From: Escherichia phage WPEC2
Strand: one strand, 5' to 3'
Length of the DNA: 64,000 nt
Sequence record: PV691511.1
Shown: positions 38,919 through 39,500 of the stretch, piece after piece
Layout of the letters: each line of letters begins with the position of its first letter
Position numbering within the stretch: the stretch's first letter is position 1
Made by a program: the position numbers and the translations under genes
The notes under the pieces: generated by a model
What the model saw: only the letters and a program-made list of their open reading frames with translations
Told to the model about the DNA's origin: nothing
The model's database searches: none

Positions 38919-39500
38919 ATGGCAGAACTGTTCTATACGGGAGTTGGAAGTAGAGACATATCCGAAGAAGAGTGGGCTTTGATGGTAGGCATAGGGAAAT
39001 GGCTTTCAAACCTTGGGTTTAAATTAAGGTCTGGGAAGGCAGAGGGTAGTGATTCTGCTTTTGAAACAGGTGTCCAAGAGTCTGAAAATCCTACTAACAA
39101 GGAGATTTATGTTCCTTGGGAAAATTTCAAAGGTAATCAGATTCCAGGGGATGTTATTGTTCTTGCAAAACCAGATACAATGAACTATGCTATCTCTGTG
39201 CAATGGATCAAAGATGTTCACCCAGCCTATGAAAAGCTTAAGCAGGGTGCTAGAAAATTGCACCAACGTAATGTGCATCAAGTGTTAGGTAGAGATTTGG
39301 AAAATCCTGCTCCATCCTGTTTCTTGTTGGCTTGTGCTAATACTGATAAACATGGAGATGCAAAAGGTGGAACAGCTACGGCTTGGAAGATAGCTAAAGC
39401 CAATAATGTTCCTTGTTTAAACATTCGTGGGAAAACAAAACAAGAGATTTACGATTTTCTACGACCTTTGGTAATGAGGGCAATAACAAGTGATTCCTAA
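38919..39500 (+). CDS. SLOG-superfamily Rossmann protein (DprA/Smf-like)
   Basis: ATG at 38919 after GAGGTGA SD; FYTGVGSRDISEE...LRSGKAEGSDSAFETG resembles DprA G.R...SG.A.G.D pattern. Confidence 0.5.
   Translation: MAELFYTGVGSRDISEEEWALMVGIGKWLSNLGFKLRSGKAEGSDSAFETGVQESENPTNKEIYVPWENFKGNQIPGDVIVLAKPDTMNYAISVQWIKDVHPAYEKLKQGARKLHQRNVHQVLGRDLENPAPSCFLLACANTDKHGDAKGGTATAWKIAKANNVPCLNIRGKTKQEIYDFLRPLVMRAITSDS

Follow-up and report, generated by a model that had tools for sequence, protein, structure and literature searches.

Does the gene at positions 38919–39500 (plus strand) of a 64,000-nucleotide stretch of DNA from Escherichia phage WPEC2 (PV691511.1; hereafter the window) encode one half of an effector whose other half is a sirtuin encoded 5 kb downstream, or a protein that acts on its own? 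A sequence-only reading of the window had recognised a SLOG/DprA-like Rossmann protein here and, by analogy with the Thoeris effector ThsA, which carries SIR2 and SLOG in one polypeptide, had suggested that it sequesters a nucleotide-derived ligand or forms a split effector-like pair with the sirtuin. We found that the protein has a SLOG fold and conserved DprA motifs, that it belongs to a very large phage family whose members are repeatedly fused to, or encoded beside, ADP-ribose-processing domains, and that there is no coupling to Sir2. We tentatively propose an ADP-ribose-linked nucleotide as its ligand.

Fold, motifs and family of the phage protein

The 193-amino-acid (193-aa) open reading frame runs from an ATG at 38919 to a TAA at 39498–39500 and contains the peptides that had been quoted from it. 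We prefer this ATG to an upstream TTG at 38895 because the sequence GAGGTGA, read directly from the DNA at 38910–38916 (plus strand), provides a Shine-Dalgarno element 5' of it. All 193 aa form one Rossmann domain, with the Rossmannoid three-layer alpha/beta fold of the SMF/DprA-LOG type. A confident AlphaFold model gave top structural matches exclusively to the SLOG superfamily, with figures of 15.8 for molybdenum cofactor (Moco) carrier protein, 15.5 and 15.0 for DprA, 14.6 for TM1055, 14.1/13.8 for YgdH/LOG, 13.3 for ShosA, 12.3 for YpsA, 10.8 for the ThsA SLOG domain and 8.9 for TRPM2. On the basis of this predicted structure, assignment to the SLOG superfamily is solid; the model by itself cannot tell DprA from Moco carrier protein or LOG, and places the ThsA SLOG domain further off.

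Sequence evidence points to the DprA side of the superfamily. A direct search of the Protein Data Bank (PDB) with the single protein returned nothing meaningful; the family profile, used in a PDB hmmsearch, matched DprA only (3maj, 3uqz), through N-terminal motifs. The protein scored 12.7 bits against Pfam DNA_processg_A (PF02481), below the gathering cutoff of 29.6 bits, and sub-threshold matches to the same model were present in 48 of 53 family members (best E-value 2.6e-7), with LDcluster4 matches in 10 of the 53. Alignment of the family with E. coli Smf by hhalign, using Smf alone or together with enterobacterial homologues, reached a probability of only 18–42%; the search seeded with Smf had recovered close enterobacterial DprA only, a poor basis for a diverse profile.

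The clearest similarities lie in short motifs, for which we judged conservation over the 53 homologues. Two motifs identify the DprA domain and form its pocket for single-stranded DNA (ssDNA; Wang et al., PMC3950713): in the H. pylori protein, Arg52 of motif 1 binds ssDNA, and Phe140, Arg143 and Asn144 of motif 2 form a base pocket (PMC3950713). Motif 1, a G-S/T/A-R sequence in the loop after the first core strand, is present as G10-S11-R12 (38946–38954, plus strand, as are all motifs below), with G10 and R12 invariant and S11 at least 90% conserved. It is followed by R37-S38-G39-K40-A41-E42-G43-S44-D45 (39027–39053), an RSGxAxGxD motif that corresponds to the SGxAxGID of DprA both in the PDB hmmsearch (3maj, 3uqz) and in the hhalign comparison with Smf, and in which R37, G39, A41, G43 and D45 are invariant. 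Within it, G43-S44-D45 provides the GxD/E substrate-binding signature of the YpsA-like SLOG clade (PMC6459960), G43 and D45 being invariant in all 53 sequences. Motif 2 (F/L/Y-x-x-R-N/D), which belongs to the helix preceding the fourth core strand, is represented by the stretch L114-H115-Q116-R117-N118-V119-H120-Q121 (39258–39281), where R117 and N118 are invariant, as are the family-specific H115 and Q121, and L or M occupies position 114 in the sequences shown; we infer the equivalence of L114-x-x-R117-N118 to the DprA motif from the motif itself and its secondary-structure position (helix 109–123 before strand 4), rather than from a confident alignment. Finally, the loop G150-G151-T152-A153-T154 (39366–39380; G150, G151, T152 and T154 invariant) is placed by hhalign opposite SGSLVTA of Smf, making GGTATA the counterpart of the DprA SGSxxTA (SGSLxTA) motif. 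The family also has invariant polar residues of its own (R37, W67, H101, H115, Q121 and S133), located at strand ends and helix starts, as expected of a single ligand site.

These features place the protein with respect to characterised relatives. DprA/Smf proteins (PF02481; 4LJK/4LJR, 3MAJ, 3UQZ) are multi-domain, E. coli Smf and its relatives carrying PF02481, PF17782 and PF25317, whereas the phage protein is the Rossmann domain only, without SAM or winged-helix domains; it builds the strand 3–4 region differently, adds the invariant R37, W67, H101, H115 and Q121, falls below the Pfam gathering score, and is phage-borne, unlike housekeeping or competence DprA. LOG/PpnN nucleotide N-glycosidases and Moco carrier protein are separated from it by the LOG motif PGGxGTxxE (quoted in PMC3950713), since the corresponding phage sequence, K149-GGTATAWKI, has no Glu at the catalytic position; consistent with this, neither the protein nor its 53 relatives matched Pfam Lysine_decarbox. 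ShosA (8ZVA), the host-encoded DprA-like antitoxin of the ShosTA defence system, is a protein of ~300 aa that is paired with a phosphoribosyltransferase toxin and binds ssDNA and RecA; no such pairing or binding is known for the phage protein. The SLOG domain of ThsA from type I Thoeris (7UXS, 6LHX) belongs to the same superfamily and binds 3' cyclic ADP-ribose (3'cADPR), a nucleotide-derived ligand, at the equivalent face, but is structurally further from the phage protein than DprA, Moco carrier protein and LOG. The phage protein is thus most aptly regarded as a stand-alone protein and a divergent sister of the DprA domain, and the original assignment to a SLOG/DprA-like fold is borne out by the structural matches, the invariant motifs and family membership.

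That family is PHROG 768 ("DprA-like"), whose profile the protein matches over essentially its full length (E-value 2e-62; residues 2–182 on profile positions 2–180 of 191). A word-indexed search returned 276 homologues, and an exhaustive profile search returned 5,962 representatives of 50% identity clusters at E≤1e-3, 1,998 of them at E≤1e-30. By tblastn, the family was matched in 1,442 of 50,697 INPHARED phage records, covering phages of Klebsiella, Pseudomonas, Escherichia, Aeromonas, Vibrio, Acinetobacter and other hosts, and including rV5-like, PAK_P1-like, N4-like, T4-like, jumbo and Bacillus phages. A profile search of cellular genomes with a narrowed family alignment found 36 loci only, so that the family is either rare there or difficult to match by pattern. 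NCBIfam gave no match to the protein, and PADLOC gave a weak match to ShosA alone (E-value 0.02). The gene region is 100% identical in Escherichia phages WPEC1, WPEC4 and WPEC6 and 99–99.7% identical in many genomes of Phapecoctavirus (Stephanstirmvirinae), among them Mt1B1_P17 and phAPEC8, and matching phage records label the gene "DprA-like DNA recombination-mediator protein". The family corresponds to the stand-alone, YpsA-like viral SLOG class that Iyer et al. (2022; PMC9503650) described from medium and large caudoviruses. We found no essential difference from that class, to which we add the explicit DprA-type motifs and the Macro fold of one fusion partner (see below). Hence, this is a known and already annotated phage family, whose class and predicted role are published.

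Fusion and neighbourhood partners

Twelve homologues were much longer than 200 aa, and the domains they add include NADAR in four, a Macro fold in two and DUF4326 in one; these are ADP-ribose-processing domains and not recombination proteins. Two of the four NADAR fusions are polyvalent proteins of ~1,480 aa that also carry YAcAr and LDcluster4 SLOG domains. The Macro assignment concerns fusion partner PHROG 2072, which was recognised by structure modelling. A Pfam search of the unexplained extensions, among them those of proteins P0229, P0234 and P0156, was empty, and PHROGs returned families of unknown function. Another recurrent partner, PHROG 9995, makes up the N-terminal ~130 aa of P0220 and P0226; it has the motif YEVS.KGDKRFS and no Pfam match.

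We next considered genes within 10 kb on either side of the SLOG gene at 80 viral loci; every partner counted here lies on the same strand as the SLOG gene. Macro genes, of two different types, were present at 17 of the loci and never more than 2.8 kb away, NAMPT at 14, a gene resembling phosphoribosyl pyrophosphate (PRPP) synthetase at 13, DUF4326 at three and NADAR at two. When SLOG proteins were clustered at 60% identity, a Macro, NADAR or DUF4326 neighbour was found in 12 of 40 clusters. Loci of the Pakpunavirus type carry RNA ligase, kinase, PRS, NAMPT, Macro and SLOG genes in this order on one strand. The few bacterial loci, including those from metagenome-assembled genomes, supplied a DUF4326-SLOG fusion, a NADAR gene 1.3 kb upstream and an adjoining Macro gene. 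The association emerged only on a targeted search for ADP-ribose and NAD+ domains; all-against-all clustering for conserved neighbours found none common to more than 10 of 72 loci. The partners are recurrent, and the strength of the association is qualitative, resting on raw locus counts uncorrected for phylogeny.

In the complete genome of the close relative Mt1B1_P17 (NC_052662.1), NADAR, Macro and RNA ligase genes are all present but scattered. The NADAR gene is gp037 (13861–14391 of L096, minus strand), which is mislabelled "GTP cyclohydrolase II" and matches NADAR with an E-value of 1.3e-35. The Macro gene is gp081 (35133–35603 of L096, plus strand), labelled hypothetical and of the type that adjoins the SLOG gene in Pakpunavirus-like phages. 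Also labelled hypothetical is gp269 (1296–2240 of L097, plus strand), a T4 Rnl1-type RNA ligase gene between those for a phosphoesterase and an ATPase.

A closer arrangement with RNA ligase was seen in Slopekvirus phT4A (2453–4043 of L136) and Klebsiella phage Roth67 (2479–4034 of L137), where the start of the SLOG gene coincides with or precedes the stop codon of a gene for an Rnl2-type RNA ligase. This is a plastic locus beside head gene 24, with NAMPT 1.3 kb downstream in phT4A. Lazarusvirus AM101, Angelvirus PX29 and Krischvirus GoldenSnicker did not show this arrangement, and we rejected a universal link to RNA ligase, the adjacency being absent from three of the five T4-like lineages checked.

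The sirtuin gene and its relation to the SLOG gene

The sirtuin gene (44526–45341, plus strand) encodes a 271-aa protein that matches Pfam SIR2 (E-value 1.9e-22) and PHROG 2162. The protein retains the GAGLS, TTNVD, HG (H135-G) and FGE motifs and, having only two cysteines, does not have the usual Cys4 zinc ribbon. Its closest solved relative is E. coli CobB (1s5p, 7.6e-19), followed by archaeal Sir2, Thermotoga Sir2 and Sirt5, and no ThsA entry was present among the 60 solved-structure matches listed. Phage homologues occur in T5-like (SP15/T5), rV5-like and Serratia BF-type phages, a clade that Iyer et al. (2022) assigned to RNA-repair neighbourhoods containing RNA ligase, kinase, MazG and calcineurin-like phosphoesterase. 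Thus, neither partner is of the ThsA kind: the sirtuin resembles CobB rather than a defence NADase, and the SLOG domain is nearer to DprA than to that of ThsA.

The two genes are also separated in the genome, with 11 annotated genes between them. A consensus scan predicted an intrinsic terminator at 41248–41265 (plus strand; 7-bp stem with five GC pairs, then a T-run), which is followed by a promoter-like site at 41271–41299 and is predicted to close the transcription unit of the SLOG gene. The same scan predicted a second intrinsic terminator at 44013–44037 (plus strand; 11-bp stem with six GC pairs), just downstream of a promoter-like site at 43969–43998. These two sites (41248–41299 and 43969–44037) and further predicted terminators at 45349–45366 and 45661–45684, strong ones with promoter-like sites beside them, would divide the plus-strand block at 37.6–45.7 kb into about three transcription units. 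Terminator-like sites numbered 14, against 5.4 expected from shuffles, and the hairpin at 45661–45684 reads as a terminator on both strands, at a convergent gene boundary. The middle unit opens, between the SLOG gene and Sir2, with a gene at 41330–42271 for a 313-aa protein with DUF7277 and DUF7275 domains (E-values 1.7e-13 and 7.5e-76; PHROG 2141). The first 16 nt of the sirtuin gene lie within the end of a 161-aa open reading frame upstream of it (44056–44541) whose product has a highly acidic C-terminus, which suggests that the sirtuin is translationally coupled to that gene rather than to the SLOG gene.

Comparison across phages gave the same picture. Sir2 lay within 10 kb of the SLOG gene at only seven of the 80 viral loci, all from the closest lineage (at least 58% identity), and on the opposite strand in three of the seven; in three other contigs with both genes the distance was 19–23 kb. 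In two IMG/VR contigs, 3300045988_074297 and 2974717474_000001, Sir2 is 97% and the SLOG protein 66% identical to the copies in the window, indicating separate gene histories, with one allele replaced by recombination; in these contigs the SLOG gene is 3.6 kb upstream of Sir2 and the block is mosaic. Hundreds of records of Pseudomonas, Aeromonas and Acinetobacter phages have the SLOG gene, and these genera are outside the top ten of the Sir2 list; conversely, hundreds of Salmonella and Escherichia phage records have Sir2 and no SLOG gene. The host-genus distributions of the two genes therefore have large non-overlapping parts. Given the predicted terminators, the linkage at seven of 80 loci, the variable orientation, the discordant identities and these distributions, we conclude that the co-location of SLOG and Sir2 is inherited gene order in one lineage and not a conserved two-gene system: the domains neither share a polypeptide, as in ThsA, nor show obligate co-inheritance or co-transcription. 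At most, the two genes share a broad NAD+/ADP-ribose theme.

The two genes had also been described as parts of one island. Both folds are indeed encoded within 6 kb on the same strand, but GC content is flat over the whole window (0.37–0.42), with GC skew tracking gene orientation, so that base composition does not point to an acquired island. We accordingly rejected horizontal acquisition of a block containing the SLOG gene as lacking compositional support. A separate feature of the region is a sharp synteny breakpoint at 37536|37537. To its left, on the minus strand, are genes for DNA polymerase, primase/helicase, glycosyltransferases and endolysin; to its right, on the plus strand, is the series that runs from a phosphatase through SLOG to Sir2. 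Each flank is ~98–100% identical to Phapecoctavirus genomes, and the flanks are contiguous in none of 139 matching records. The right flank starts 3 nt inside the homologue of Mt1B1_P17 gp228, so the open reading frame at 37624–37863 is a truncated copy of it. The breakpoint could be a genuine rearrangement or an assembly join.

Possible functions of PHROG 768

We propose, with somewhat less than even confidence, that the pocket of the PHROG 768 protein handles an ADP-ribose-linked nucleotide, countering NAD+-based defence or clearing by-products, and does so independently of the sirtuin. The protein keeps the motifs of the DprA nucleotide pocket, namely G-S-R and GGT in loops, L-x-x-R-N in a helix, and GxD, and this pocket would accommodate a single nucleotide unit, a base with its phosphate, in the manner of the ssDNA complex of H. 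pylori DprA. Because the recurrent fusions and neighbours of the family are NADAR, Macro, DUF4326 and NAD+ salvage genes, the ligand would belong to the ADP-ribose-linked class: either soluble and derived from NAD+, as are ADP-ribose (ADPr), ADPr-1''P, ADPr>P and the isomers of cyclic ADP-ribose (cADPR), or a base in single-stranded nucleic acid that has been ADP-ribosylated. The protein would bind, and may also hydrolyse, this ligand. It would be part of a dispersed phage NAD+/ADP-ribose toolkit, Phapecoctavirus also having unlinked Macro and NADAR genes, that may blunt NAD+-based host defences or clear ADP-ribose by-products. Consistent with this proposal, a survey of 21,191 viral proteomes by Iyer, Burroughs, Anantharaman and Aravind (2022; PMC9503650) recorded SLOG domains in 7% of small phages, 19% of medium-sized ones and 31% of jumbo phages. 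Most belonged to the YpsA-like clade, with Macro, NADAR and DUF4326 as fusion partners or neighbours; the authors predicted that these proteins sense, or degrade and process, ADP-ribose derivatives, and stress that this is untested. The sequence-only reading had linked the protein with nucleotide-derived ligands and suggested a possible split effector-like pair with the sirtuin; the fusions and the Macro, NADAR, DUF4326 and NAMPT neighbours favour the former idea, and the latter is not supported by the data above.

We consider it rather unlikely that PHROG 768 is a hitherto unrecognised and very widespread class of counter-defence protein in which the base-and-phosphate pocket of DprA recognises, and perhaps cleaves, ADP-ribosylated nucleotides. 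The targets would be ssDNA bases ADP-ribosylated by DarT-type enzymes, which would be passed on to Macro and NADAR glycohydrolases or processed jointly with them, or else NAD+-derived immune signals. NADAR and DarG-type Macro domains are proven DNA ADP-ribosyl-glycohydrolases, and the NADAR protein of T4 (AdfN) defeats DarTG1. The repeated fusion of a "recombination mediator" domain to NADAR, Macro and DUF4326 would be accounted for by this specific version.

Several observations weigh against an ADP-ribose-linked ligand. The window has no Macro, NADAR, DUF4326 or NAMPT gene, so that the ligand class is argued from relatives, and ~70% of lineages have no ADP-ribose-processing neighbour. The fusion and neighbour counts are raw, lack a whole-genome baseline or phylogenetic correction, and hence are qualitative. 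The characterised proteins of the DprA clade (DprA and ShosA) all bind ssDNA and RecA, not ADP-ribose, and a LOG-type glycosidase mechanism cannot simply be assumed for a protein without the LOG catalytic Glu. That the invariant residues form one pocket is an idea based on their predicted positions at strand ends and helix starts. In the literature we found neither biochemical nor genetic experiments on phage proteins of the SLOG or DprA-like kind.

The likelihoods we attach to the proposed function and its rivals are separate and do not form a strict partition. Most credible among the rivals, yet still improbable in our view, is that the protein is a minimal DprA, with no link to ADP-ribose, that binds ssDNA through its conserved pocket and protects it and/or loads host RecA or a phage recombinase in recombination-dependent replication; a 2021 jumbo-phage paper by the authors of the 2022 survey suggested DprA as an extra ssDNA-binding protein. 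This would leave the fusions to NADAR, Macro and DUF4326 and the NAMPT-Macro-SLOG clusters unexplained. It also sits poorly with the missing SAM and winged-helix domains and the low Pfam and hhalign scores, with the invariant His, Gln and Trp residues, which generic ssDNA binding does not need, and with the presence of the SLOG gene in T4-like phages that already have UvsY. A role as a sponge, binding TIR-made signals (2'/3'cADPR, His-ADPR, N7-cADPR) without degradation and so blocking Thoeris, as Tad1, Tad2, Lockin, Sequestin and RyR-domain proteins do, draws on the ability of SLOG domains such as that of ThsA to bind 3'cADPR (7uxs is among the structural matches), the high conservation of the pocket residues, the wide distribution of the family in virulent phages, and the suggestion of cADPr sensing or processing by Iyer et al. 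(2022; PMC9503650). By contrast, we found no homology between the SLOG protein and the sponges Tad1, Tad2, Acb2, Lockin, Sequestin or RyR, and the sponge and anti-Thoeris papers that we consulted concern other folds and do not mention SLOG/DprA-like proteins; we judge this role to be quite doubtful.

The SLOG protein and the sirtuin might instead be loosely connected by way of NAD+-dependent RNA repair. Acting like KptA, the sirtuin would strip 2'-phosphates from RNA and release ADPr>P; the SLOG protein, together with Macro and NADAR, would then process this by-product or bind the RNA end. The sirtuin in the window has homologues among the rV5-, SP15/T5- and Serratia BF-type sirtuins of predicted RNA-repair neighbourhoods, the second gene upstream of SLOG encodes a calcineurin-like phosphoesterase, in phT4A and Roth67 the SLOG gene overlaps the Rnl2-type ligase stop codon, and the Pakpunavirus-type loci combine RNA ligase with NAMPT, Macro and SLOG genes. 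Nonetheless, the RNA-repair role of the sirtuin is itself a prediction, the ligase adjacency was present in only two of the five T4-like lineages checked, at a plastic locus next to gene 24, most phages with the SLOG gene are without this sirtuin and vice versa, and in this phage lineage ~23 kb separate the SLOG gene from the RNA ligase cluster, making the link about as doubtful as the sponge. Least credible by far is the split ThsA-like effector, in which the SLOG protein would sense a ligand and turn on the separately encoded sirtuin as an NADase. Its sole support is that both folds lie within 6 kb on the same strand; the separate predicted transcription units, the lineage-restricted and orientation-variable linkage, the discordant identities, and the CobB type of the sirtuin and DprA type of the SLOG domain all speak against it, and an NAD+-depleting effector would harm a lytic phage too.

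We thus return to an ADP-ribose-linked nucleotide as the favoured, tentative ligand. The SLOG gene of this phage is an ordinary member of PHROG 768, which is present in ~3% of sequenced phage genomes and comprises roughly 6,000 clusters at 50% identity; the family is a good experimental target. If PHROG 768 proteins neutralise ADP-ribose-based immunity, whether Thoeris-type signals or DarT-type DNA modification, they would constitute a major anti-defence family, and the usual label of "DNA recombination-mediator" would be misleading.
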